From Thiotrichaceae bacterium UBA4486 (GTDB taxonomy: Bacteria > Pseudomonadota > Gammaproteobacteria > Eutrophobiales > Eutrophobiaceae), in NCBI GenBank assembly GCA_002389045.1, contig DGNS01000015.1, positions 196,217-260,216 on the forward strand: DNA of 64,000 nucleotides. The letters run 5' to 3'. The notes beneath the pieces were generated by a model, which ran no database searches, was not told the origin of the DNA, and saw nothing but the letters and a program-made list of their open reading frames with translations. How positions within the stretch are numbered: the first letter of the stretch is position 1; every line of letters begins with the position of its first letter. A program made the translations under genes and the position numbers. Below, one piece after another: positions 1-39,684 of this stretch.

Positions 1-1566
1 AATTAATAATTTTTTATCAATGTGATCTGAGTCTGCCAGTGCAAGTTTAATGGAATAAAGATAGTCTGAGGAATCACGTTCAAATATATTTTCGTCTTGA
101 AGAAAGTTCTCAACGTGCTTACGTATTTTATCATTAATTTCATGGGGCAATTCGATAAGATTTCTAGAAACATAGTCTTTAATTGCATCATTGATTCTTA
201 TAAATTCACCTTCGTTACCAAAGTATTCAGCTATATTTTCTACAACTAAATTATCTATGATTGGAAAATATTTATTTTCATCGAGGATATCAAATACAAA
301 ATCTAAACTTATCAAGTCAAACTGAGATAATAATACTATTAATAAGTAAATTTCTTTATCATCCTCATAATCTTTTATAAATTTAGAAACCTTTTCTTCA
401 TTAAATTCAGCTAACTGAAATGACTCTTTTTTCGCTTGATGTAGTTTTAGCTCGCTTATTAGAGATACACAAAATAGAATTTGATCTGGGAAGCCAGTCA
501 GTTGTGCTGCAAAATATTCAAAGTCATCCCTTGTTAATGATATGTCTTCAATTTCTAGAAGCTTTGAGAAAAGTCTTTTTCTCTCAGATACTGTAAATTC
601 TGGTATACTAATACAAAATATATGATCATAGTTATATTTTCTATTGAATTTTAGATTTCGTCTGCTGGCTACACATAAAATAATATGATTAGGGATCTTG
701 CTGCTTACAATAGACTCATAAAACCATGCGGCTACTTCACCTCTATAGTCCACCACGCAACCATTGTCTAAGATCAGAATTATTTCATCGTTATCACATA
801 CGGATTTTAGTAGTTTTACAACGATTTTCTTTTTGTCTTCTATATCCTTTTCTAATAAGTTTTCTAGTCCAGCGCCAAGATCAATAAGACCAAGATCATT
901 TAATTTTAGTATAAAATCTTCAATGCTATCGTTTCTGTCTAGATAAATAGTCGGAAAAACATACGACTCTCTAACCGCATGTGTTTTTGAAAGTGCATTC
1001 TTTAAAAATGTTCGACGTCCAATTGATTGCAGTCCTGACGTGAAAATACAATTAGGTTTTGGAAGCTCATGGTCGTCAATCCGTATTTCAAACTCCTCTA
1101 ATTTGTCGTTTCTTCCAATAAAAAGCTTTTTTCTTTCATCAAGTTTTGGATGATGAGCTAAAGAAATTTGGCGTAGTTTTCCATGTATTCGCCTCGCAGC
1201 AACACTTGGCCTTGATATCTTTTTCAAATTATATTCATCCCTCATCCATTGAGGGATCCGGCCATCAGAATAATTTGTGTCATCGATTATTATGGGATAT
1301 ATCTTTTTCCTTAGATCTTTCTCCAATATTTTTTCAACGGCTAATATTTCTTTTTTCACCCATTCTGACTCAAGAGAGGCTTGAGATATGAAAAAAACAA
1401 ATAACTGCGTTTGGTCAAGTCCCCTTAATATTTCTTCAATTGTTTTGCATCCTTCTTCAAACGTAATTTCATCATACTCAATATTATCTTTGCCTAAATT
1501 GTTCGCAACTATTCTCACATATGATTCTTTATCTTTACTAGAATGAGAAAGAAAAGCTCGAATCAT
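1..1566 (-). CDS. TIR domain::STAND (NB-ARC-like) NTPase, 5'-partial relative to the window (the C-terminal part runs off the left edge). ATG at 1566, no stop through position 1, at least 522 aa.
   Basis: I translated the minus strand by hand from the ATG at 1566..1564 to position 1 and found 522 sense codons with no stop. The ORF is missing from the supplied track because it has no in-window stop. The N-terminus reads MIRAFLSHSSKDKE...FFISQASLESEWVKKEIL, which is the TIR hallmark (FxSHSxxDK start, SxWxxxEL motif with the conserved glutamate). Downstream there is a degenerate P-loop TSGLQSIGRRTFL, a Walker B-like EIILILDNG, an hhhCVASRR sensor motif and a GFPDQ GxP-like motif, i.e. a STAND NTPase. 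The island is about 35% GC against about 60% in the flanking core. Confidence 0.65.
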   Translation of the reverse strand, partial: MIRAFLSHSSKDKESYVRIVANNLGKDNIEYDEITFEEGCKTIEEILRGLDQTQLFVFFISQASLESEWVKKEILAVEKILEKDLRKKIYPIIIDDTNYSDGRIPQWMRDEYNLKKISRPSVAARRIHGKLRQISLAHHPKLDERKKLFIGRNDKLEEFEIRIDDHELPKPNCIFTSGLQSIGRRTFLKNALSKTHAVRESYVFPTIYLDRNDSIEDFILKLNDLGLIDLGAGLENLLEKDIEDKKKIVVKLLKSVCDNDEIILILDNGCVVDYRGEVAAWFYESIVSSKIPNHIILCVASRRNLKFNRKYNYDHIFCISIPEFTVSERKRLFSKLLEIEDISLTRDDFEYFAAQLTGFPDQILFCVSLISELKLHQAKKESFQLAEFNEEKVSKFIKDYEDDKEIYLLIVLLSQFDLISLDFVFDILDENKYFPIIDNLVVENIAEYFGNEGEFIRINDAIKDYVSRNLIELPHEINDKIRKHVENFLQDENIFERDSSDYLYSIKLALADSDHIDKKLLI

Positions 1567-1627
1567 TTTTTAAGAACCTAGTGTTAGAAGCTGTTTAGTA
1601 TATGTTGGATTATAAATAAATTACCTG

Positions 1628-1662
1628 TCAGAAAAAACCGCAGTGATATTTCCCCCACTGCG
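1628..1662 (-). terminator. Rho-independent terminator of the molybdopterin oxidoreductase gene, sitting at the island/core boundary.
   Basis: An 8-bp inverted repeat CCGCAGTG(1637-1644)/CACTGCGG(1655-1662) with a 10-nt loop is preceded on the plus strand by AAAAAAA (1630-1636), which reads as a T-run after the hairpin on the minus strand. It lies immediately downstream of the minus-strand stop at 1711. Confidence 0.6.
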
Positions 1663-1710
1663 GCCCTTTACCCTTAACTGCGTTCTCCCTTCTGTTGTTT
1701 CATAGTTCTC

Positions 1711-3834
1711 CTATGTGGCAGCTTCCACCTGCACCAGGTTATCGAAGAACGACGGGGCGTTGCCCATTTCGATAAACTCGGCGGAACTGGTGATGTTTAC
1801 CGTGCCCTTGTTGAGTTGGCGCCAGTAACCGAGTGTGGCAACTACCACGCCGGGGTTGGTGTCGTCGGTGACATGGGCCACGCCTTCAAATGTGCCGCGG
1901 TCGTTGAACACCTTGACGTTGTCGCCTTCTTTCACGCCTCTCGCATCGGCATCTGCCGGGTTGATTAGCACGAACTGTGCGCCCTGCTCTTTCTGCTTGC
2001 CTTCCATGTTCGCGTAGCACGAATTCAGGAACGCGTGGCTCTTCGGTGTGACGATGTTGAGTGGATATTTCTTCGCCAGTTCCGGGTTGGTTTCCGGGCG
2101 TTCGTTCGGCGGCAGGTAATCCGGCAGTGGATCGATGTCCTGGCCCGGTTGCATGCCCTCGTACATCTGCCGGAACGGCGGGGCGACGAAGTTCTTCGCG
2201 CCGTCGACTCGGAAGTGGCACTTGCCGGTTTCCGTCGGGAAGTTGCCTTCCTTGTGCGGGCAACGTTCGTCCTTGCTGCCAACGTTCAAGCGGGCAAAGC
2301 CGTCTTCACGCAGGGAGTCCAGCGTGATGCCTTCACAGGCCGGGGCGTCCCAGTCGATGAAGTTTTCCAGGCATTCGGAGTCGGACCATTTCAGGCGCTC
2401 CTCGTCGTAGCCCATCTTCTCGGCCAGGCGGCGGAAGATCTCGTTGTTGGACAAACATTCGCCGGGGGCGTCGGTGCACTTGGTGTTGTAGGTCAGGTAC
2501 AGGTGACCCCAGGAGAGGATGATGTCTTCCATCTCCGCGCCCATGGTCGCCGGCAACACGATGTCGGCATAGGATGCGGTGTCGGAAATGAAATGTTCCG
2601 CCGCGACGTGGAACAGGTCTTCGCGTTCCAGGCCTTTCACCACCTTGTCGGCCTCGGGCGATTGCGTCACCGGGTTGGAGTTCCAGGTCATGATGGACTT
2701 GATCGGTGTCTTCAGTGGCAACTCACCGGTCAGGCCGCGGCCCAGTTGTAATATGTTGACCACCTGCGTGCCTTCGGGGATCCAGTCCGGGCGGCAGATG
2801 ACGTCGAACTTGTAGGGATGTTCCCACACCGGGAACTGGGTAACGCCGCCGCCGACGTGACGCCAGGCGCCGGTCAGTGCCGGGATGGAGGTGACGGCAC
2901 GGATGGTCTGGCCGCCGCCCTGATGGCGTTCCAGTGCCACGCCCATGCGGATGGCCGCCGGTTGTTCGGTGGCCAGTTCCTTTGCGAATTGTCGGATGTC
3001 ATCGGCAGGTACGCCGGTGATGTCCTCGGCCCATTCCGGGGTGTGTTTTTTCACGTGCTCGGCCAGGTCCTCGTAGCCGACGGTGTAGTTGTCGACGTAG
3101 TCCTTATCGACAAGACCCTGTTCGATGATGCTGTGGATCACCGCCATGGCCAGTGCGCCGTCGGTGGCCGGTTTCGGGGCGATGTGCCAGTCGGCCTGCT
3201 TGGCGGTGCGCGACTTGTAGGTATCGATGACCACCACTTTCGCACCGCGTTTTTTCGCATCCATGACGATATGCCAGTGGTGCAGGTTGGTGCTCATGGA
3301 GTTACACGCCCAGATGACGATGTATTTGGAATGAATGTAGCTTTCCGGATCGACGCCGGCAGTGGGGCCGACGGTTAATAACCATGCCGTGCAGGAACCT
3401 TCACCGCAGTAGGTGCGCTCGCACACCGTGGCGCCCATGCGGTTGAAAAAGGCGTCGCCGCCGTTGAGGCCGTGCACCAGGCCCTGGTGGCCAAGGTAGC
3501 TGGCCGGCATGATGGCCTGCGGGCCGTCTTCTTCTATGATCTGTTTCCACTTCGTGGCGATGGTGTCCAGCGCCTCGTCCCAGGTGATTTGTTCGAACTG
3601 CTTCGAACCCTTGGGGCCGACCCGCTTCATGGGATGGTGGATGCGGTCGGCATGGTAGTGGCGTTTTTCGTAATCTTTCAGTTTGACGCACAGGCCTCCG
3701 CGCGTCATGGGGTGTTCTTTATTGCCGCGAACGCCGGTCAGTTTGCCGTTCTCCACCTCGAAGACCATGGAACAGGTGTCGGGACAATCATGCGGGCAAC
3801 CGCCGTGGAATTCTTCTTTGATTACTGCAGCCAT
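1711..3834 (-). CDS. Molybdopterin (bis-MGD) oxidoreductase family catalytic subunit, cytoplasmic type, with an N-terminal Cys cluster consistent with a 4Fe-4S site.
   Basis: 707 aa. The N-terminal Cys cluster is GGCPHDCPDTC...C. Overall similarity is to the DMSO reductase / formate dehydrogenase / assimilatory nitrate reductase superfamily. A GAGGAG Shine-Dalgarno lies 8 nt upstream of the ATG. No Tat signal is present. Confidence 0.7.
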   Translation of the reverse strand: MAAVIKEEFHGGCPHDCPDTCSMVFEVENGKLTGVRGNKEHPMTRGGLCVKLKDYEKRHYHADRIHHPMKRVGPKGSKQFEQITWDEALDTIATKWKQIIEEDGPQAIMPASYLGHQGLVHGLNGGDAFFNRMGATVCERTYCGEGSCTAWLLTVGPTAGVDPESYIHSKYIVIWACNSMSTNLHHWHIVMDAKKRGAKVVVIDTYKSRTAKQADWHIAPKPATDGALAMAVIHSIIEQGLVDKDYVDNYTVGYEDLAEHVKKHTPEWAEDITGVPADDIRQFAKELATEQPAAIRMGVALERHQGGGQTIRAVTSIPALTGAWRHVGGGVTQFPVWEHPYKFDVICRPDWIPEGTQVVNILQLGRGLTGELPLKTPIKSIMTWNSNPVTQSPEADKVVKGLEREDLFHVAAEHFISDTASYADIVLPATMGAEMEDIILSWGHLYLTYNTKCTDAPGECLSNNEIFRRLAEKMGYDEERLKWSDSECLENFIDWDAPACEGITLDSLREDGFARLNVGSKDERCPHKEGNFPTETGKCHFRVDGAKNFVAPPFRQMYEGMQPGQDIDPLPDYLPPNERPETNPELAKKYPLNIVTPKSHAFLNSCYANMEGKQKEQGAQFVLINPADADARGVKEGDNVKVFNDRGTFEGVAHVTDDTNPGVVVATLGYWRQLNKGTVNITSSAEFIEMGNAPSFFDNLVQVEAAT

Positions 3835-3939
3835 CGTAAAGTCTCCTCATTCTCAGCTCATCGGTAAAGTGATGGTCTCACGACCCGAGTCGTCGGCAGG
3901 TGATTACGTCGGCTTGGTTCCGGTTGTGTTCTGCTGGTG

Positions 3940-4600
3940 ATGACTGGATTCCGGTCTCCGCCGGAATGACGTCAAAGAACACCGGGTTGACGTCAAAGAA
4001 CTTGCCTGCCGAACTCTCGACCCTGAGACCTGTTCTTTGAAATAGTTATGGGCCCTAGACTAGTCCTTTTTGGGATAAAGGTCGACAGACATTGGCGGGA
4101 AAAACGCTTGTTTGACTGGATTCCCGCCTTCGCGGGAATGACGAATGGGGAGATTTCAAAGTCGGATGTCGTCATGCCAGACTCGTTCTGGCATCCAGTC
4201 AATTCATGTCACTCTCGCAGAGTCGCAAAGCCCGCCAAGTAACCATTTCATCTACTTCGCGCCTTGGCGCCTTGGCGAGAATACCGTTATTGAAAGGTGT
4301 TTCGTCTATCGGGTAAGACTGGATTCCGTGTGTGCGAAGCCTGCCCTTGGGGTGCAAGCCCGGAATGACGAATGGGGAGATTTCAAAGTCGGATGTCGTC
4401 ATGCCAGACTCGTTCTGGCATCCAGTGAAAGAATGCCCGCCGCAGGCGGGACTTGTAATACTGGATTCCCGCCTTCGCGGGAATGACGAAGGTTTGTCAT
4501 TTCGAGCGCAGCGAGAAATCTGGTCTGTCCGTGCCAGATCCCTCACCAGCTCCCTCGCTACGCTTCGGGACAAGGCTCGGGATGACAGTTGAGGCGAATG
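3940..4600. repeat. Cluster of REP/MITE-like palindromic intergenic repeats. A ~70-bp unit (...GGAATGACGAATGGGGAGATTTCAAAGTCGGATGTCGTCATGCCAGACTCGTTCTGGCATCCAGT) is present twice at about 4126-4200 and 4361-4430, with further palindromic units around it.
   Basis: Direct sequence comparison shows two near-identical ~70-bp copies. Palindromic units of the type CTGGATTCCCGCCTTCGCGGGAATGACG occur several times, plus a GTCATTTCGAGCGCAGCGAGAAATC unit and a CCCTCGCTACGCTTCGGGACAAGGCTCGGGATGACAG unit related to the palindrome at 43207. The ORFs in this region (4048..4242, 4145..4486, 4199..4573, 4332..4592) are repeat-encoded artefacts. Confidence 0.6.
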
Positions 4601-4606
4601 ACCGGT

Positions 4607-5137
4607 TCAGCCGTCCTTGCTCACGCTACCCGGCTTTTTCAGCTTGCGGGTTTTCTTGCGCGATTCGGCGGACATCTCGTCCTTGTAGGCGCTGAGCTTG
4701 TCCTGCAGTTTTTTATCGTTGGTAGCGAGGATCTCCGCGGCCAGCAGCCCGGCGTTCTTGCCGCCGCCGATGGCGACGGTCGCAACCGGAACGCCGCCCG
4801 GCATCTGGGCGATGGAAAGCAGCGAATCGAGACCTTTCAACGCCTTGCTTTCAATGGGCACACCGATCACCGGCAGCACGGTGTGGCTGGCGACCATGCC
4901 CGGCAGGTGCGCGGCGCCGCCGGCACCGGCGATGATGACTTTCAATCCCTTCTTTAATGCACCGCGTGCGTAGCGGCTCATGTCCATGGGCGTGCGGTGG
5001 GCGGAAACCACTTTTACCTCGTGCGGGATGTTGAACTGCTCGCAGACTTTCGCGGCCTGTTCCATGGTCGGCCAGTCGGAGTCCGAGCCCATGATGATGC
5101 CGACAAGAGGCGTTTTCTTACTGGTTGCCATATTCAT
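4607..5137 (-). CDS. purE: N5-carboxyaminoimidazole ribonucleotide mutase (PurE)
   Basis: 176 aa. The motifs [13 protein letters not shown] and [12 protein letters not shown] are typical of class I PurE. Its start overlaps the purK stop (ATGA). Confidence 0.9.
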
Positions 5138-6384
5138 TAGTCCCCGAACTGTATCAGGCCGGCGGCGCGGGTGGCGAGACTTTCCGCCGTGCCGAGATCA
5201 TCGGCCGTGACGGTGAGGTGGCCCATCTTGCGGCCGGGGCGGCTTTCGCTTTTACCGTATATGTGCACGTGCGTGCCCGGGATCTCCAGGGCCTTGTCGA
5301 TGCCGTGCGGCGTACCGCTGCCGCTGCCCTCGCCGAGCAGGTTGACCATGACGGCGGCCGGGGTTTTCATCTGGGACGAACCCAGTGGCCAGCCGAGTAC
5401 GGCGCGGACGTGATTTTCAAACTGCGAACAGTCGCAGGCCTCGATGGTGTAATGGCCGGAGTTATGCACGCGCGGCGCCATTTCGTTCAACAGGATTTCA
5501 TTGTTGTCAGTTAAAAACATTTCCACGCCAATGGTACCGGTGCCATCGATGGCTTCCACGGCGCGAATGGCAAAGTCGCGTGCGGCGTCCTGCAGTTCCT
5601 GCGGTATCGCGGCGGGCGCGCGCACGATGTGGCAGATGTGATCTTTCTGGATGGATTCCACCACCGGGTAGGTGGCGGTCTCGCCCGTGCGTGAACGGGT
5701 CACCATGATGGCCAGTTCCATGGTGAAGGGACAAAACGCCTCGACGTATAAATCGCGGTTATCGCCGTCGAGCTTGTCCCAGGCCGCATCGATATCGGCG
5801 ACGCCGTTGAGGGTGGCATTGCCCTTGCCGTCATAAGCGTTGCGGCGTGCTTTCAACACCAGCGGCCAGCCGAAGTCAGCGGCGATGGTTTCGATCTCGG
5901 TGCGGTTCGTGACACTGCGGAATTGCGGCATGGGCAGACCGGCGGCGGACAGGGTTTGTTTCTGGATCAGCTTGTCCTGCACCAGGCCGATGGATTTCGA
6001 GGACGGGTACAACGCGTGCCCGGCGTCTTCCAGTCTGGCCAGGGCGTGGGCATCGACGAACTCGTTTTCCAGTGTCAGGTAGTCCACAACCACGGCCAGT
6101 TTCAGCAGTTCGTCGGGATCGTTCCAGTCACCGGTTAGCGCCGTGCTGGCCAGTGGTGCGGCGGGACAATCGGCGCTTTTTTCAATAAGGCTGACATCGC
6201 AGCCGAGTTGCCGGGCCGACACGGCGGTCATCTTGGCGAGCTGGCCGCCGCCGATGATGCCGATGCGCGGGCACACGGCAGGTCTGGCTACTGCCCCGGG
6301 TGATTCGATGATTGTCGGTGATGTGCTGTTCATGGTTGATGCTAATCTGACAGCCGTTGGCCGGAAAACCGGCGATTTTAGCAC
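5137..6384 (-). CDS. purK: N5-carboxyaminoimidazole ribonucleotide synthase (PurK, ATP-grasp). The start is uncertain: a GTG at 6384, or an ATG at 6333 giving about 398 aa.
   Basis: The [13 protein letters not shown]-loop-like N-terminus and ATP-grasp body match PurK. Translational coupling with purE. Confidence 0.85.
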
Positions 6385-6491
6385 ATTGGTGGCTGATTAC
6401 AGGTGCGTAAAGGCGCTTTTTTGACAGGATTTCAGCTTGCCCCGCGCTGAAATGACATCAAAAAGTGGGTTCAGATCTGACTTATCCCCGC

Positions 6492-8054
6492 TCAGGCGGC
6501 GCTGGTGGTGGCTTCGAGCTCCGAGACGCACCTGTTGCGGCCCATGTTCTTGGCTGAATAAAGGGCCATGTCGGCGCGGTGGAAGACCTCATCGGCGTGT
6601 TCATTCATCTTGAATTCGGCGTAACCAATGGAAATGGTAATGGGTACGGACTGGTTATGATGATGGAAATTGCAACGCTCGACCACGTGGCGCAGGTTCT
6701 CGACGGCGATGGCGGCTTCCTCACCGTCGGTTTCCGGCAGTAGCAGCGCAAATTCCTCGCCACCGTAGCGGGCCAGGAAATCCGCTTCGCGGACGTTTTC
6801 ATTGCACACCGTGGCCACGGCCTTGAGGACCTTGTCGCCGGCCTTGTGACCGAACCGATCATTGACCTTCTTGAAATCATCGATGTCGATCAGGGCCAGG
6901 GTCAGGGGTTGACGGTAACGCTGGCTGCGTGCGATTTCCTTTTTCAATTGTTCATCGTAGGCGAGTCGGTTCGGAATGCCGGTGAGGGCGTCACGGTGGG
7001 CATTGAGGTGTACCTCGTTGAGTTTTTCCTTGAGGTTGAGGCTCTCGGATTCCATTTCCTGCAACCGGTGTTTCAACTGCGCAGCCCGCTGGTCGGCGGC
7101 CTCCTGGCGCTGGCGTTCGGTAGTCAGATGCTCATCGAGCGCGGTTTCGAGTTTCGCCATCTGCGCATCGACGCAGGCTTTCAGTTCATCCAGGCTCTGC
7201 GCCTCATCCATTTTCTGATGCAATAAATCGTTTTGTTGGTGGAAATCCCTGTTCAGGGCTTCAGCCTCCATGCAGGAGATCCCCTGCTCCCGTTGTGTGG
7301 CTTCCAGGTGCCGGTACAGTGCACTCAACTGGGCAATAAGCTTGTTCAGATAACGCTGGATGTCATCCAGTTCCTTTTGTAATTGCTCGTGTACGCCGTT
7401 GATGATACTGGTGATCTTCTGGTTGACCGACTTCATGGAGCTGATCTGGTTGAGGCTGATTTGTTCACGAACACGATTCAGCTCCTGCATGGCTTCCCTG
7501 GGCAGCACCAGATGTTCGAGCAGGTTGATCAGGTATTTGTTGCTGTCCTCATCCGTTTGCCGCGCTGTGCATATCAGTTTGACGGTTTTATCTATCAGCT
7601 CCAGGTATTGCTGTTGCTGCTGGTTTTTTTGCGCCTGTTCACGGATAGACAGGATTTCATCATTCAGGTCATCCGGCAATGACAGCCGGTTGAGGAATTC
7701 GGGAAAATAATCGGTGGTTTTTGAGTTCGCTGAGGTAAAACCCGCACGAAGTTTCTCTGAACGTGTGAGGATGACCTCAACGGATTTCTCGATGATGATA
7801 CGGCGTTCATCTTCGCTGCCGGCATGACGCAGGTTGTTTTTCAGTTTGGCGATTTCATCGTCAATATCAGGATCGATGCCGGCAAATGAAAACACCAGTT
7901 TGAGGATGGTTTTTTTCAACTGGTTATGAATCCTGTTCAACTCTGTATCCCGTCTAGATGATTGAATGAGGTTGTCCCGTGCCGGGCTGTTCTCCGGCGC
8001 GCCCTCCGCGTTGCCGGCGTTACCGGACATGGCGGCTTCCCCTGGCGACTGCAT
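6492..8054 (-). CDS. Diguanylate cyclase: N-terminal coiled-coil sensor region plus a C-terminal GGDEF domain with GGEEF active site and RxxD I-site.
   Basis: 520 aa. The motifs LTGIPNRLAYDEQL...RYGGEEFALLLPE are present and an READ I-site lies 5 residues upstream of GGEEF. The N-terminal half is Q/E/L-rich coiled coil. Confidence 0.85.
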   Translation of the reverse strand: MQSPGEAAMSGNAGNAEGAPENSPARDNLIQSSRRDTELNRIHNQLKKTILKLVFSFAGIDPDIDDEIAKLKNNLRHAGSEDERRIIIEKSVEVILTRSEKLRAGFTSANSKTTDYFPEFLNRLSLPDDLNDEILSIREQAQKNQQQQQYLELIDKTVKLICTARQTDEDSNKYLINLLEHLVLPREAMQELNRVREQISLNQISSMKSVNQKITSIINGVHEQLQKELDDIQRYLNKLIAQLSALYRHLEATQREQGISCMEAEALNRDFHQQNDLLHQKMDEAQSLDELKACVDAQMAKLETALDEHLTTERQRQEAADQRAAQLKHRLQEMESESLNLKEKLNEVHLNAHRDALTGIPNRLAYDEQLKKEIARSQRYRQPLTLALIDIDDFKKVNDRFGHKAGDKVLKAVATVCNENVREADFLARYGGEEFALLLPETDGEEAAIAVENLRHVVERCNFHHHNQSVPITISIGYAEFKMNEHADEVFHRADMALYSAKNMGRNRCVSELEATTSAA

Positions 8055-8102
8055 CGAATCCGTTGATTCCTTTTCTCATAATCAACATAAATTCCATTCG
8101 TA

Positions 8103-8150
8103 TTTGAAAAATGACTTACCGGGGATTGCCGCGCCTTACAGCATTATTCC
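8103..8150. repeat. Palindromic hairpin (GGGATTGCCGCGCC...GGCGCGGAATCCC) between the two GGDEF genes. It is REP-like and a possible terminator.
   Basis: A ~13-bp inverted repeat with a ~17-nt loop. It is compositionally related to the GGATTCCCGC...GCGGGAAT units at 3940-4600. Confidence 0.4.
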
Positions 8151-8254
8151 GGGCGCGGAATCCCATTCACAACAGGGTATCGACAGCCGGTGTAAAACCT
8201 TGAGTGTTGTGCGTCAGTTTGGAAAGCTGCCCGGGCGGGACGGTCTGGTGGCAA

Positions 8255-9820
8255 TCAGGCTGCTGATTGCAGGCACTGTTCGGTCTTGCAGCGGTTGCGG
8301 CCGTCGCTTTTGGCAGCGTAAAGCGCCTCATCCGCGCGCTTGAATACCGTTTCAGTGCTGTCTTCCCCACGAAATTCGGCCATGCCGATGGATATGGTGA
8401 TGGGCACGGACTGGTCGCTGTAGTGAAAATGACACTCCTCGATGATGCCGCGCAGGTTTTCAAGGGCCTTCAGCGCCTGGTCGAGCCGGGTATCAGGGAG
8501 CAGCAGCACAAATTCCTCGCCACCGAATCGGGCGAGAAAATCCGCGCTGCGGATGTTGTTGCCACAGACCTCGGCAACGGCTTTCAGAACCTTGTCGCCG
8601 GCCTTGTGCCCCCAGGTGTCATTAACACTCTTGAAATGATCGATGTCCAGCACCGCCAGTGTCAGCGGGTACTGGTTGCGCCGGTAACGCTGCACTTCGT
8701 CCGCGAAGCGTTCATTGAAAGCCAGGCGGTTGGGCAGCCCGGTGAGGACATCGTGCATGGCCTCTTTTCTGGCGGTGACGAGTTTTTTTTCCAGGGTGTT
8801 GCAGTGTTTCTGCATGCCGGTGAGTTCGCGGCGCATGGCCATGAGGCGTTGTTCCGATTTGGCATGCTGCCGTGACTCCATTTCGATGTGGGCCTTGAGG
8901 TTTTCATTCACCGTGCTGATATGGGCGTTGACGCAGGTCTTGATCTCCTCGATATCGCTGGTCGAATCGATCTTCATTTGCAGTGATTCGTTGCGCACCA
9001 GAAAGTCCTTTTTCAGGTTCCTGGAATCGGTGAAGGCCTGTTTGTGGTCGTTGATACTGCCGGTGATGTAAGAGTTGAGTTCACCCAGCTGGCCGATGAC
9101 GCCGGAAATATACTGGCGAATATCACGAAACTCGTGCTGCAGTTTTTCGCTGCTCTGATTGATGATTTCCGAGATGTTTTTAACCAGGCTGACCAGGCCG
9201 GCGCTATCCTTGCTGCGATGGATTTTTTGCTTGATGTTTTCGAGTTCGCCGGCGGCTTCGGCGGGTAGACGGATATATTCGATCAGGTTCAGCACCAGTT
9301 CCCGGTTACAGGAACGCCCGGATTCGGAGCCGGCCGTTAACAGGTGGATGGTTTCATTGACAATTTCCAGGTGATCCTGCTGCGCCTTTATGCTGCGGAC
9401 ACGGTCCTTGAGCCTGATGAATTCATCGGCCTGTTCGTGACTGAGCGCCAGCTTGCTGATCAGTTCCAGGAACAACTCCGGTTTATCACTTGTGTCCTGT
9501 TTGCGCGCCAGGTCGCGGGCGTCTGTGTAGTCGAGGACGTCATTGATGGCCTCCTCTATCAGTGTGTCGCGCTGTTCCTCGCTGCCGGCATTGCGAATCG
9601 ACGTTTTGAAGGTCTTGATGATGTTGTCGAGCTCTTCGCTTTCACCCAGATGGGAGAAGATCAGTTTCAGGATATTCTTATTCAGGCGGGTGCGTGTTTC
9701 CCGCCACTGCTCTTCCATATCGCCGGAATGCCCGGTTTTGGACTGTCCACGGTGCTGATCTGGTTTACGGTTGTCTGACATGAGTTTCCCGGGTCCTGGT
9801 TCCTGCACCGGCGGGATCAC
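8255..9820 (-). CDS. Diguanylate cyclase, a paralogue of the upstream gene: coiled-coil N-terminus plus GGDEF with GGEEF and RxxD.
   Basis: 521 aa. The motifs LTGLPNRLAFNERF...RFGGEEFVLLLPD and an RSAD I-site are present. The N-terminal region (LNKNILKLIFSHLGESEELDNIIKTFKTSIRNAGSEEQR) aligns with that of the neighbour (LKKTILKLVFSFAGIDPDIDDEIAKLKNNLRHAGSEDER). Confidence 0.85.
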   Translation of the reverse strand: MIPPVQEPGPGKLMSDNRKPDQHRGQSKTGHSGDMEEQWRETRTRLNKNILKLIFSHLGESEELDNIIKTFKTSIRNAGSEEQRDTLIEEAINDVLDYTDARDLARKQDTSDKPELFLELISKLALSHEQADEFIRLKDRVRSIKAQQDHLEIVNETIHLLTAGSESGRSCNRELVLNLIEYIRLPAEAAGELENIKQKIHRSKDSAGLVSLVKNISEIINQSSEKLQHEFRDIRQYISGVIGQLGELNSYITGSINDHKQAFTDSRNLKKDFLVRNESLQMKIDSTSDIEEIKTCVNAHISTVNENLKAHIEMESRQHAKSEQRLMAMRRELTGMQKHCNTLEKKLVTARKEAMHDVLTGLPNRLAFNERFADEVQRYRRNQYPLTLAVLDIDHFKSVNDTWGHKAGDKVLKAVAEVCGNNIRSADFLARFGGEEFVLLLPDTRLDQALKALENLRGIIEECHFHYSDQSVPITISIGMAEFRGEDSTETVFKRADEALYAAKSDGRNRCKTEQCLQSAA

Positions 9821-9903
9821 CTGGTACGCCGACGCGGCAGCGTCGGTTCAGGCATGAACGAGAATACCCCGGGCTATAAATCCGGGGCGGGTGTGAAAAC
9901 CGA

Positions 9904-10512
9904 CTACTGTGCAGATTCCTTATCGACCAGGGCGTTGGTGGCCTTTAGCATGTTTTCAAAGCTGCCGGCGATGGAAGGGCCGGTGAGGTACTTGCCATTG
10001 ATGATGATGGAAGGCACGCCGCGGATCTGGTAGCGGCGGCCCATGAGCAGGGCTTTTTTGATCTTGTCATTGACGGCGTCGGACTCATAGGCCCGATCGA
10101 AGGCGCTTTCATCGATTCCGTTATCGGAGAACAGTTTTCGTAATTCGGCCTGGCTGCCCAGTCGCTGGCCTTTTTTATGGATGGCGTCAAACATGGGCTG
10201 GTGGACGCTATCCAGCACACCCAGTTCCAGTGCGGTGTAGTAGGCGCGGGCATGAGGAATCCAGGATTCCCTGAAAATGCCGGGCATGCGTTTGAATTCC
10301 ACCTGCTCGGGTTTGTTTCTGATCCATTCCTCAAGGTGCGGTTCGAAGTCGTAGCAGTGCGGACAACCGTACCAGAACACTTCCAGGACCTCGATCTTGC
10401 CAGGGGCGACATCCGTGGGTTGCGGGGTGTCCAGGGTGACGTAGGTATCGGCGGCGAGTGCCGGCGCGCCGAGCAACAGCAGGAAGGTAAAAAACAGCTT
10501 CTTCAATAACAT
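9904..10512 (-). CDS. dsbA: Periplasmic thiol:disulfide interchange protein DsbA
   Basis: 202 aa with a signal peptide, a CPHC active site (WYGCPHCYDFEP) and a thioredoxin fold. Confidence 0.85.
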   Translation of the reverse strand: MLLKKLFFTFLLLLGAPALAADTYVTLDTPQPTDVAPGKIEVLEVFWYGCPHCYDFEPHLEEWIRNKPEQVEFKRMPGIFRESWIPHARAYYTALELGVLDSVHQPMFDAIHKKGQRLGSQAELRKLFSDNGIDESAFDRAYESDAVNDKIKKALLMGRRYQIRGVPSIIINGKYLTGPSIAGSFENMLKATNALVDKESAQ

Positions 10513-10704
10513 GGTTCTAATCCTTGGTAAATTATGTGTTCGCTGACCGGATACGGGTGTTCATGTCGCAGGAGTTGCCTGTATGGCGGTGTTGCGCCTG
10601 GGCCCGCTTTGCATGCATTAATTGATTCGCCCGCATTGATATGGTTTCACTGCCGCGGCCGGTGCGTGCATTTTGTCACAGTAATGACGGGACCGTAGCA
10701 GTGA

Positions 10705-11304
10705 TTAATGCAAGCCCTGGACGTATTCGGAGACCGCCTTGATTTCCTCGGCGCTCATTTTGTTGGCGATGGTCCGCATGATCATGTTAACCCGTGTGCC
10801 GGCGCGGTAGGCATTCAACTGGGTCTCGACGTATGCGGCATGCTGACCGCTGAGCGCCGGGTACTGTGCGGGTGCATTACCTTCACCGGCGGGACCGTGG
10901 CAGGCCATGCAAGCCGGGACTCCGGTGTCCGCGTTGCCCGCCCGGTAGACTTTTTCGCCGCTGACGACATATTCAGGCGGGGTCTGGCCGATACGGCCCT
11001 TGCGCGTACTGTACCAGGCGGCGAGATCCTCGATATCCTGGTCACTGAGATTGGCAGCCATGGGTGACATCTGTGCATTCTCGCGTTCGCCGTTTCTGAA
11101 AAAATGCAATTGTGAGATCAGGTACCCTTCTCCCTGTCCGGCCAGATTGGGCCAGACCGGGTTGCTGCTGTTGCCATCGGCGCCGTGGCAGGCCGCACAG
11201 ACCTGTGACTTCTGCTCACCGGCCTTGATATCTCCGGCAGCGAGGCCGGTACGAATCGACAGTATTAAAAAAAAGGCACACAAAAATAACAGGACTCGCT
11301 TCAT
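10705..11304 (-). CDS. Cytochrome c4 (dihaem c-type cytochrome)
   Basis: 199 aa with a signal peptide and two CxxCH haem-binding motifs (CAACHG, CMACHG). The cc4-dsbA-engB neighbourhood follows the Pseudomonas arrangement. Confidence 0.85.
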   Translation of the reverse strand: MKRVLLFLCAFFLILSIRTGLAAGDIKAGEQKSQVCAACHGADGNSSNPVWPNLAGQGEGYLISQLHFFRNGERENAQMSPMAANLSDQDIEDLAAWYSTRKGRIGQTPPEYVVSGEKVYRAGNADTGVPACMACHGPAGEGNAPAQYPALSGQHAAYVETQLNAYRAGTRVNMIMRTIANKMSAEEIKAVSEYVQGLH

Positions 11305-11530
11305 TTTTGGTTTTTTCCGGTATTGAATTCAAGACAGGGGCAGCTTAAATCCGCTTGCCGGGCAAGTAAAGAACACAAGTTGCGCCAGATCATGGGATAT
11401 TCACATTCTTTGCCGTCGCGATGCTTTACAAGCCCGCGAATTTAACGTTTCATCCCGGCATGCATGGTACGACTTACGGACGCGACACAGACACGACAGA
11501 TCGCCACAACTACAGGCCTCTGAGGCAACC

Positions 11531-12121
11531 ATGACGGATCGCTATGCGCAGACCCGTTTCCTGATTTCGGCCGCGGAGCTGTTGCAGTTACCGGCGGATA
11601 CCGGTACGGAGGTGGCTTTCGCCGGGCGCTCCAATACCGGTAAATCCAGCGTCATTAATGCACTCACCCGTCAAAACGCACTGGCGCGAGTCAGCAAGAC
11701 GCCGGGGCGCACCCGCCTGTTGAACTGTTTCGAGGTTATGCCCGGGCAGCGCATTATCGATCTGCCGGGCTACGGTTATGCAAAAGTACCCGAGCGCATC
11801 CGATCGCATTGGGGCGAAGTGCTGGAAGGCTATTTCCAGACCCGCGATTCACTCAGGGGGTTGATCCTTATCGTGGATATTCGTCATGGGCTGAAGCCCA
11901 CGGATCGCCAGATGCAGGCCTGGTGTGAAAGTCGTGATTTGCCCCTGCATATCGTTTTGAACAAGGCTGACAAGCTGTCCCGCGGGGCAGCCGCCGGGCG
12001 TAAGCAGGCGCTTGAGACCGAACCCGGTCATTACGGCAGTGTCCAGGTGTTTTCCGCCCTGAAAAAAACCGGGCTGGAGCAATTGACTGCCAGGCTGGAT
12101 GAGTGGTTCGACGTGAAATAA
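11531..12121 (+). CDS. engB: Ribosome biogenesis GTP-binding protein EngB/YihA
   Basis: 196 aa with the G1 motif GRSNTGKSS and a DxPG motif. Canonical EngB. Confidence 0.9.
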   Translation: MTDRYAQTRFLISAAELLQLPADTGTEVAFAGRSNTGKSSVINALTRQNALARVSKTPGRTRLLNCFEVMPGQRIIDLPGYGYAKVPERIRSHWGEVLEGYFQTRDSLRGLILIVDIRHGLKPTDRQMQAWCESRDLPLHIVLNKADKLSRGAAAGRKQALETEPGHYGSVQVFSALKKTGLEQLTARLDEWFDVK

Positions 12122-16665: not shown

Positions 16666-18708
16666 TTATGCCGTAATTCCACTGTGTCTTAACAGGGGTT
16701 CGACACTCGGCTCGCGGCCGCGGAACTCGATAAACAGCTCCAGCGGATCGCGGGACCCGCCCTGCTCCAGGATGCTGTGCAGGAATGCCTTGCCGGTCTC
16801 AGTGTTAAAGATACCCTGTTCTTCAAACCTGGAAAAGGCATCCGCTGACAGCACCTCGGCCCACTTGTAGCTGTAATAACCGGCGGCGTAGCCCCCGGCG
16901 AAGATGTGCGAAAAGCCGTTCTGGAAGCGGTTGAAGACGGGCGGCTGAATCACCGCCACCTTTTCGCGCACCTCGTCGAGCAGTTTCTGGATGTCTTCGG
17001 CCGAGTCGATGTGCGGTTGCATGTGCAGGCGGAAATCGAACAGGGAGAATTCCAGTTGCCGCACCATCTGCATACCGGACTGGAAATTCTTCGCCGCCCA
17101 CATTTTCTCGAACAGGTCCGCCGGGATTTTCTCACCGCTTTCGTGATGGCGGGCGAACAGATCCAGCGCCTCGCGCTCCCAGCACCAGTTTTCCATGAAC
17201 TGGCTCGGCAGCTCGACGGCATCCCAGGGCACACCGTTGATGCCGGATACACCGGCGTAGTCGACCTTGGTCAGCATGTGGTGCAGGCCATGGCCGAATT
17301 CGTGGAACAGGGTGATGACCTCGTCGTGGGTGATCAGCGCCGGCTTGCCGCCCACCGGCGGTGTGAAATTACAGGTCAGGTAGGCAACCGGTGTCTGGAT
17401 TGCCGAGTCCAGTTTGCGCCGGACCACGCATTCATCCATCCAGGCGCCGCCGCGTTTGTGCTGACGCGCGTACAGATCGAGATAAAAGCTGCCCTGCAAC
17501 TCGCCGCTGCTGTTGTAGATATCGTAAAACATCACATCGTCGTGCCAGGTGGTGACACCCTCGCGCGGCCGGATATCAAGTTCATAGAGTCGCTGGACCA
17601 CGGCAAACAGGCCCTGCAGCACGTTCGGCACGGAAAAATACGGGCGCAGATCCTCGTCGGAAAACCGGAACATGGCCTGCTTCAGTTTTTCCGAGTAGTA
17701 AGCAATATCCCAGGCATCGAGCGTGTCGATGGTGTATTTTTCACGGGCATGGCGATTGATCTGTTCCAGGTCCGACTGTGCCACGGGCGCTGATTTGTCG
17801 GCGAGCTCGGTGAGAAAATCCAGTACCTGCCGCGGCGTGGCGGCCATCTTTTTCGCCAGCGATAAATCGGCGTAACTGGCGAAGCCCAGCAGCCGTGCGA
17901 CTTCCTGGCGCTTGTTGAGAATATCCACCATCACCGCGCTGTTGTCCCACTGCGGATCGTTGCCGGCTTCGGCCGAGGCGCGCGTGTTGTAGGCCGTGTA
18001 CATTTCCCGGCGCAGTCCGGCATCGTCGGCGTACTGCATCACCGGCAGGTAACAGGGGAAATCCAGGGTCAAAAGCCAGCCCTCGTCAAAACCATTCTCA
18101 CGCGCCGACTGCTCCAGGTAACCGAGCACCGATTGCGGCAGGCCGGAGAGCATGTCCTGATCGGTCACGTGTTTTTTCCAGGCCTGGGTGGCGTCGAGCA
18201 GGTTTTCCTCGAAGTGTGTTTGCAGCTTCGTCAGTTCCTGTTGCAAGCGCCGATAGGTGGCGCGGTCCTCGCTGTTCAGTTCGATCCCGGAGAGGCGGAA
18301 ATCGCGCAGGGCGTTGTCGATGAGCTTTTTCTGTGCCGGTACAAGGCGCGCGTATTCGTCACTTTCGGCCACCGCCTTGAAGCCTTTATAAAGGCCTTCG
18401 TGCTGTCCCATCTCGGTGGCGTAGTCGGACAATTTGCCGATGCATTCGCTGTAGGCTTTTCTGAGCGCCTCGTTGTCGCGAACGCTATGCAGGTGACTGA
18501 CCGGTGACCAGGCGCGATTGAGGCGATCATCCATGTCTTCCAGCGGCTGGACAAAGTTATCCCAGGTGAACCCGGTCGTTGTCGAGACCAGGTGTTCGAC
18601 GGTTTCGCGGTTCTCTTCGAGTAATTGATCAATGGCGGGGACGACGTGTTCGGGTTGAATGCGATCAAACGCGGGCAACGTATGATTTTCAAGTAACGGG
18701 TTATTCAT
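16666..18708 (-). CDS. prlC: Oligopeptidase A (M3 family)
   Basis: 680 aa with an HEFGHGLHH zinc motif. The length and layout match M3 thimet/oligopeptidase A. Confidence 0.85.
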   Translation of the reverse strand: MNNPLLENHTLPAFDRIQPEHVVPAIDQLLEENRETVEHLVSTTTGFTWDNFVQPLEDMDDRLNRAWSPVSHLHSVRDNEALRKAYSECIGKLSDYATEMGQHEGLYKGFKAVAESDEYARLVPAQKKLIDNALRDFRLSGIELNSEDRATYRRLQQELTKLQTHFEENLLDATQAWKKHVTDQDMLSGLPQSVLGYLEQSARENGFDEGWLLTLDFPCYLPVMQYADDAGLRREMYTAYNTRASAEAGNDPQWDNSAVMVDILNKRQEVARLLGFASYADLSLAKKMAATPRQVLDFLTELADKSAPVAQSDLEQINRHAREKYTIDTLDAWDIAYYSEKLKQAMFRFSDEDLRPYFSVPNVLQGLFAVVQRLYELDIRPREGVTTWHDDVMFYDIYNSSGELQGSFYLDLYARQHKRGGAWMDECVVRRKLDSAIQTPVAYLTCNFTPPVGGKPALITHDEVITLFHEFGHGLHHMLTKVDYAGVSGINGVPWDAVELPSQFMENWCWEREALDLFARHHESGEKIPADLFEKMWAAKNFQSGMQMVRQLEFSLFDFRLHMQPHIDSAEDIQKLLDEVREKVAVIQPPVFNRFQNGFSHIFAGGYAAGYYSYKWAEVLSADAFSRFEEQGIFNTETGKAFLHSILEQGGSRDPLELFIEFRGREPSVEPLLRHSGITA

Positions 18709-39607: not shown

Positions 39608-39684
39608 TGGGGTGTGGCCAAGTTGGTTAAGGCACGGGGTTTTGATCCCCGCATTCCCAGGTTCGAGTCCTGGCACCCCAGCCA
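39608..39684 (+). tRNA. tRNA-Gln (anticodon TTG)
   Basis: 77 nt. TGGGGTGTGGCCAAGTTGGTtAAGGCACGGGGTTTTGATCCCCGCATTCCCAGGTTCGAGTCCTGGCACCCCAGCCA aligns closely with E. coli tRNA-Gln(UUG), has an anticodon loop TTTTGAT, and ends in CCA. Confidence 0.9.

Follow-up and report, generated by a model that had tools for sequence, protein, structure and literature searches.

Does the open reading frame (ORF) at the left edge of this stretch encode a working defence protein, and if so, to which family does that protein belong? The window analyzed here is a stretch of 64,000 nucleotides from contig DGNS01000015.1 of Thiotrichaceae bacterium UBA4486. On its minus strand, positions 1–1566 translate into 522 sense codons that begin with an ATG at 1566 and reach the window edge without meeting a stop codon. 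This agrees with an earlier note, made from the sequence of the window, which had described an uninterrupted frame of that length. The frame is missing from the mechanical ORF list because ORFs running off the source stretch are not listed there, which is the reason that the note had suggested. As argued below, the gene is likely to be an intact, horizontally acquired, single-gene TIR-NLR anti-phage system in an AT-rich island of an uncultured gammaproteobacterium.

The remainder of the gene was obtained from metagenome assemblies. Exact-sequence look-up of the neighboring molybdopterin oxidoreductase yielded four metagenome contigs that share a common gene order. One of these, L003 (ENA ERZ3820734 NODE_75, 95 kb), matches window positions 1–12000, read as their reverse complement, with 100% identity and carries the complete gene at L003:12269–14731, which encodes 820 amino acids followed by a stop codon. 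The 820-aa protein is identical across all four contigs. Thus, the leftward extension that had been proposed as a check ends in a stop codon and yields a complete gene rather than a fortuitous frame. The 5′ 64% of the gene (codons 1–522 of 820; window 1..1566, minus strand) falls inside the window, and the remaining 298 codons, which encode the end of a linker and a tetratricopeptide repeat (TPR) sensor, lie beyond the left window edge at L003:13835–14731. The N-terminus of the window frame coincides with the N-terminus of its relatives. Public collections already list the 820-aa gene under the name "hypothetical protein". The gene is "hidden" solely through the window edge and had already been called in public assemblies.

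To which family the protein belongs is answered by an end-to-end profile match. Residues 1–818 of the 820-aa protein align with positions 1–818 of the 824 in the PADLOC model PDLC03015, "TIR-NLR" (E = 5.6e-233, 774 bits), and the in-window fragment by itself aligns over residues 1–522 with model positions 1–524 (E = 3.5e-152). The hidden Markov model search suggested for the TIR domain returned Pfam TIR_2 at residues 5–98 (E = 9.9e-13; 49.1 bits, curated cut-off 28), and nothing else in the Pfam scan of the protein was significant. The Protein Data Bank (PDB) entries 9m0n/9umd, deposited as "Tetratricopeptide repeat protein", represent a close, collinear 824-aa relative (E = 1.7e-138 for the in-window part), equal in length to the PADLOC model. 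A database search returned more than 600 homologues, nearly all of 815–830 aa, from Gammaproteobacteria, Campylobacterota, Deltaproteobacteria and Bacteroidales, and mostly labelled only "TIR domain-containing protein". Full-length identity to any relative is at most 47%, and identity to the 824-aa enterobacterial members is ∼45%. A scan of genome contigs recovered just two distant loci, a plasmid search only five distant matches, and a tblastn search of phage records no homologue.

TIR-NLR was described as an anti-phage system that consists of one gene and is carried by P4-like satellites of E. coli, and the E. coli homologue is active against phage as a single gene (Rousset 2022, PMC9122126). 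Surveys of defence systems list it as Rst_TIR-NLR. The protein studied here combines the end-to-end profile match with a TIR domain that has its catalytic glutamate, a STAND fold and a C-terminal TPR region, and its gene has no conserved partner. The gene is a divergent new member of this known, experimentally validated defence family, which has an entry in defence-system catalogues, has been tested in E. coli and has a solved structure. A "TIR-II" system of TIR plus TPR, possibly the same family, has also been reported (PMC11350192).

Other families of similar architecture were considered and rejected. The earlier note had likened the protein to Avs, bNACHT and NLR-like anti-phage proteins. 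The TIR, STAND and repeat-sensor architecture stands; assignment to Avs1–5 or bNACHT does not, as no such model matched, and the family is TIR-NLR. At E ≤ 1, TIR-NLR apart, the in-window protein matched none of PADLOC's models for Avs or other STAND defence proteins, which excludes Avs1–5 (AVAST) membership. A NACHT-type bNACHT was rejected because the NACHT model PF05729 gave no match at the same threshold, as was also the case for the NB-ARC models of Pfam, and the best folds were of the NB-ARC/Apaf-1 and MalT types. The remaining PADLOC matches at E ≤ 1 (PDC-S66, ThsB, RT-TIR and SAVED_TIR) are at the level of the TIR domain. Thoeris was rejected as well: Pfam ThsB_TIR scored 16.6 bits, below its cut-off of 21.2, and no Thoeris effector model matched any neighbor.

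Within the window, the minus strand encodes the TIR domain (residues ∼1–135) at 1162..1566 and a STAND-type NTPase module, comprising nucleotide-binding domain, helical domain and winged helix (residues ∼148–522), at 1..1125. Motif residues were counted across 118 aligned family members of full length. The TIR N-terminus reads FLSHSSKDK (residues 5–13), of which F5-L-S-H-S9 is invariant. In SEWVKKEI (residues 67–74), the motif S67-x-W69-x3-E73 contains E73, the glutamate presumed to be catalytic in the NADase site of the TIR domain; its codon lies at 1348..1350 (minus strand). E73 is present in 118/118 members, W69 in 117 and S67 in 116, and conservation extends to relatives at 25–41% identity. 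The TIR motif had been claimed to be intact with its glutamate, and the alignment bears this out.

The Walker A motif, or P-loop, GLQSIGRRT (residues 178–186; 1009..1035, minus strand), reads G178-LQSI-G183-R184-R185-T186, with arginine at the canonical lysine position. G178 occurs in 117/118 members, G183 and R184 in 118/118, R185 in 105/118 and T186 in 99/118. The P-loop of 9m0n is GLIGVGRRS, and G-x4-G-R recurs in plasmid relatives at 25–41% identity from Phocaeicola, Zymomonas, Enterococcus and Photobacterium (L013–L016). These Arg-for-Lys relatives span four phyla and retain the Walker B aspartate. The atypical Walker A reported earlier is therefore real but no peculiarity of this copy, since all 118 relatives have the arginine. 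Judged from the alignment, the arginine P-loop is a trait of the lineage and not a lesion of this copy, and because it is invariant across the family it provides no argument against function here.

The other nucleotide-binding motifs, quoted in the earlier note as Walker B, sensor and GxP motifs, are all found at the places given there. The Walker B strand, I262-ILILD267-N268 (763..783, minus strand; ILILDNG at residues 263–269), has D267 in 117/118 members, while position 268 is occupied by aspartate in 58, asparagine in 32 and glutamate in 23. The sensor-1-like position 302, which ends CVASR (residues 298–302), is lysine in 67 and arginine in 44. In GFPDQ (residues 358–362), the GxP-type motif of the helical domain, G358-F-P360 (487..495, minus strand), has both G358 and P360 in 118/118.

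No sequence-profile search of the middle domain, whether with Pfam, with NCBIfam or with the family profile run on PDB, turned up a NACHT, NB-ARC or STAND match other than 9m0n, so the STAND call is made from fold comparison. An AlphaFold2 model of residues 1–522, built from a 46-sequence alignment, reached a mean predicted local distance difference test (pLDDT) score of 85.3 and a predicted template modelling (pTM) score of 0.88, and places a beta strand at residues 263–267, within Walker B. When this model was compared by Foldseek with fold libraries lacking 9m0n, the top matches were the plant TIR-NLR RPP1, Apaf-1 and CED-4, and NLRP14 appeared first at rank 35. The fold match supports the earlier claim of a STAND/NB-ARC-like NTPase behind the TIR domain, and the predicted structure has the arrangement of nucleotide-binding domain, helical domain and winged helix that is typical of STAND/NLR proteins. 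For the C-terminus, a family profile that included the fragment of this protein matched designed and natural TPR proteins over positions 593–745, and the full protein has a weak match to Pfam ARM_TT21_N. By these matches, the sensor encoded outside the window is a TPR array, in agreement with the description of the E. coli protein by Rousset et al. (PMC9122126). Sensor repeats beyond the window had been anticipated; the TPRs fall within the 298 codons supplied by L003, and the full protein aligns with the family model through position 818. Family membership, the three-domain architecture, an intact gene and the conserved catalytic and nucleotide-binding residues are all observed for this copy.

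Judged by homology, the protein would most likely act in four steps. First, a phage-derived ligand would be recognized by the C-terminal TPRs, whose codons lie past the window edge. Recognition would free the central STAND nucleotide-binding module from autoinhibition, and the module would then oligomerize. Oligomerization would gather the N-terminal TIR domains into composite active sites around E73. The assembled TIR domains would cleave NAD+ and so stop both the infected cell and phage replication (abortive infection). In the proposal of Rousset et al. (PMC9122126), sensing of a phage component falls to the TPRs and oligomerization to the STAND domain, and TIRs that are fused into Avs/STAND proteins or stand alone have been treated as NAD+-depleting effectors rather than generators of signals (10.64898/2025.12.03.692087). 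In this scheme we infer the trigger, the oligomeric state, the fate of NAD+ (depletion or signal) and the role of the arginine P-loop.

The gene lies in DNA of distinct composition. G+C (GC) content is 0.23–0.37 across window positions 1–1600 and 0.55–0.66 from ∼1700, which places the switch at ∼1620–1700, in line with the position near 1620 given in the earlier note. The right-hand boundary of the AT-rich island is marked by an intrinsic terminator (1632..1665, minus strand) of the upstream molybdopterin oxidoreductase gene, a hairpin of CCGCAGTGGG, loop and CACTGCGG followed by T6. Folding gives a 10-bp GC-rich stem plus U6 with a dG of −22.4 kcal/mol (z = −3.3), which confirms the neighbor's terminator that had been placed at the switch; a simple promoter/terminator scanner found nothing in 1400–1900, and the terminator was recovered by folding. 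The oxidoreductase itself (707 aa; 1711..3834, minus strand; Pfam Molybdopterin, Molydop_binding and Molybdop_Fe4S4) is a flanking core gene outside the system. It is 86–91% identical to proteins of metagenome-assembled genomes labelled "Gammaproteobacteria" or "Thiotrichales" and 76–77% identical to those of Methylophaga.

In L003, the AT-rich stretch (GC 0.25–0.40) extends from ∼12,200 to ∼17,650, about 5.4 kb, with the TIR-NLR gene at its head. After a gap of 289 bp follows a DUF4238 ORF (198 aa; L003:15020–15616) that matches Pfam positions 97–280 of 281, has no PADLOC match, and is probably, from this partial match, what remains of another defence-associated gene after loss of its N-terminal part. 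An 86-aa ORF, a DUF4365 protein and a 279-aa ORF (L003:15689–17501) complete the island, all on the same strand. The DUF4365 protein (239 aa) has a weak PADLOC match to a restriction-endonuclease-like domain (3.6e-8), and the 86-aa and 279-aa ORFs belong to no family. Beyond the island, at intermediate GC, lie an ABC exporter gene, a 284-aa ORF and parDE.

Two small inverted-repeat pairs with GGGG-type ends were seen in the island. One, of 17 nt with its halves 25 nt apart (L003:14901–14959), sits inside the gap between the TIR-NLR gene and the DUF4238 ORF. The other, of 15 nt and 93% complementary (L003:15668–15682 and 17703–17717), brackets the 2-kb DUF4365 segment up to the far boundary of the island. 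These repeats may be remnants of mobile elements. Among marks of mobility, the island has no tRNA, no integrase among its called genes and no flanking direct repeats. The closest oxidoreductase orthologues on long contigs (88–89% identity) are flanked by other genes on either side, with nrdAB upstream and the nap operon downstream; because these closest relatives are not syntenic, insertion is not demonstrable by an empty-site comparison.

Homologues elsewhere have neighborhoods of their own. The homologue P0080 (825 aa; L019–L022) stands at the end of an element with integrase, YhcG, ParB, DUF932 and DUF736 genes. The genes beyond the integrase differ in the four genomes (groEL/groES, purN/purM, electron transfer flavoprotein genes and cobW), which means that the element occupies a separate chromosomal site in each of the four. 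Near this homologue in L021 there is also a CAP12-PCTIR TIR gene. Another homologue, P0001, adjoins a racemase gene and an ISL3 fragment, and other homologues are on plasmids. The other genes of the island were absent beside all homologues inspected, a small sample comprising P0001, P0080, the plasmid copies and the loci L001 and L002, where tblastn found none of them. Such unrelated neighborhoods fit a single-gene system.

Of the alternatives, an unlikely one, although it survives best, is that the TIR domain makes a messenger of the cyclic ADP-ribose (cADPR) type or derived from ADP-ribose that switches on a separate effector, in the manner of Thoeris or plant TIR-NLRs; this effector might be a downstream island gene (the DUF4238 fragment, the nuclease-like DUF4365 protein or the 279-aa ORF). 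The island genes 3′ of the TIR gene are on the same strand, and diverse signals are made by bacterial TIRs (10.64898/2025.12.03.692087). Like Thoeris ThsB, the protein has a TIR fold with a catalytic glutamate motif; this weak similarity (PADLOC 8e-6, and below the Pfam ThsB_TIR cut-off) is a domain-level match only, and no ThsA-type effector adjoins the gene. Against a separate effector, one gene suffices for the activity of the E. coli homologue (PMC9122126), and homologues elsewhere are not accompanied by the island genes. Moreover, the 289-bp gap with its inverted-repeat pair separates the gene from the next ORF, and that ORF, DUF4238, is truncated at its N-terminus.

Somewhat less probable still is that the frame is intact and function or expression has been lost in this host. 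Several observations weigh against a working system at this locus. This copy departs from the consensus at 14 of the 168 columns with conservation of 90% or more, compared with a median of 4 for its relatives; it thus deviates more than 88% of relatives do, the other 12% departing as often or more. Four of the departures, R276G, Y303R, L582P and P806S, are non-conservative. A consensus scan of 1400–1900 found no complete sigma-70 promoter, and the Shine-Dalgarno sequence upstream of the ATG is weak (AGG). A P-loop that lacks the canonical lysine may not permit ATP hydrolysis. Finally, the literature searched contains no account of the 9m0n/9umd structures or of the NADase activity, trigger or enzymology of the family. 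The truncated-looking DUF4238 neighbor also suggests decay of the island.

On the other side, most departures are conservative exchanges (E/D, L/F/I/Y, R/K and A/S/V), and every catalytic and nucleotide-binding motif is untouched by them. An 820-codon frame free of stops at ∼32% GC would be very unlikely to persist without selection, the same sequence occurs in several assemblies, and the AlphaFold2 model is confident. We read the copy, by its sequence, as a divergent but functional member of the family. A candidate −10 hexamer, TATAAT, a perfect match to consensus, lies 42 nt upstream of the ATG (1609..1614, minus strand) and has no good −35 partner; from these signals the gene is presumably expressed. 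A pseudogene was rejected, as the frame is intact and has kept its full set of catalytic and nucleotide-binding residues.

It is very improbable that the protein is a STAND-regulated TIR protein with a role outside defence, such as a host-directed effector like TcpB or TirS, or a regulator like MalT. The protein has no secretion signal or DNA-binding domain, it matches over its full length a family with demonstrated anti-phage activity, and its gene is carried in islands that are mobile or AT-rich. A chance open frame, for which the low GC content alone would speak, is refuted by E-values of 1e-152 to 1e-233 against the family model and by hundreds of full-length homologues.

Comparison with known systems further defines the single-gene TIR-NLR reading. 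Like the TIR-NLR of E. coli P4-like satellites, with which it is collinear over the whole length, the protein has TIR, STAND and TPR regions, E73 and a G-x4-G-R-R-[ST] P-loop, and its gene stands alone in mobile or variable DNA. It differs in its location, here a chromosomal AT-rich island and not a P4 satellite hotspot, and in its 14 departures at conserved columns. With Avs/AVAST proteins, including the TIR-bearing Avs and SIR2-Avs5, it shares the logic of effector, NOD (for nucleotide-binding oligomerization domain) plus sensor, a TPR-type sensor and an NAD+-consuming effector (Gao 2020, 2022). However, similarity between the NODs is undetectable in sequence, and the relationship is visible at the fold level only. 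Some Avs proteins, too, are reported to have Walker motifs that are degenerate (KpAvs8; PMC13581612). The plant proteins RPP1 (7dfv) and NRC2 (8rfh) and Apaf-1 are only ∼11–14% identical, and the protein has TPRs in place of leucine-rich repeats or WD40 repeats, an arginine P-loop, and a bacterial single gene with no EDS1-type downstream pathway. Its logic is like that of plant TIR-NLRs and Avs, yet it is a member of neither family. The prokaryotic STAND-TPR proteins MalT (8bob) and PH0952 (6mfv), unlike this protein, lack a TIR effector, and the P-loop of MalT, a transcription factor, is of the canonical GK[ST] form.

Elsewhere in the window, the spacer between purE and the oxidoreductase gene (3935–4490) is filled by repeats resembling repetitive extragenic palindromic (REP) elements. 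A 39-nt hairpin-containing unit, CTGGATTCCCGCCTTCGCGGGAATGACGAA, occurs there three times, at 3935, 4107 and 4452, and a 68-nt direct repeat occurs twice, at 4135–4202 and 4362–4429, with 99% identity. No Rfam family matched these repeats. Two tandem paralogous genes for GGDEF diguanylate cyclases lie at 6492–8054 and 8255–9820 (minus strand; 520 and 521 aa), both with a diguanylate cyclase-associated coil domain. The 64-kb window yielded a single RNA gene, for a tRNA-Gln (anticodon TTG; 39608–39684, plus strand).

The arginine P-loop invites a more speculative reading. To our knowledge, every canonical P-loop NTPase has the Walker A lysine. The arginine is invariant from this gene to ∼25%-identity relatives in Bacteroidota, Alphaproteobacteria and Bacillota, with the Walker B aspartate kept. 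It is conceivable, although doubtful, that this lineage has a nucleotide switch that binds ATP without hydrolyzing it, or senses some other ligand; separately, and with the same reserve, the DUF4365, 86-aa and 279-aa genes might form an undescribed defence module. We know of no description of such a mode of NLR activation for STAND proteins. The deposited 9m0n/9umd structures may already explain the arginine P-loop.

The main value of the finding is annotation: a gene labelled "hypothetical protein" or "TIR domain-containing protein" is of a validated anti-phage family. It is also a reminder that genes cut by a window edge escape ORF tracks. The TIR-NLR family is extended to an uncultured gammaproteobacterium of ∼60% GC, related to Thiotrichales and Methylophaga, where it occupies a small foreign island. 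Of wider interest, the lineage-wide arginine P-loop, a property of the family and not of this locus, bears on nucleotide use in this branch of bacterial NLR-like proteins.
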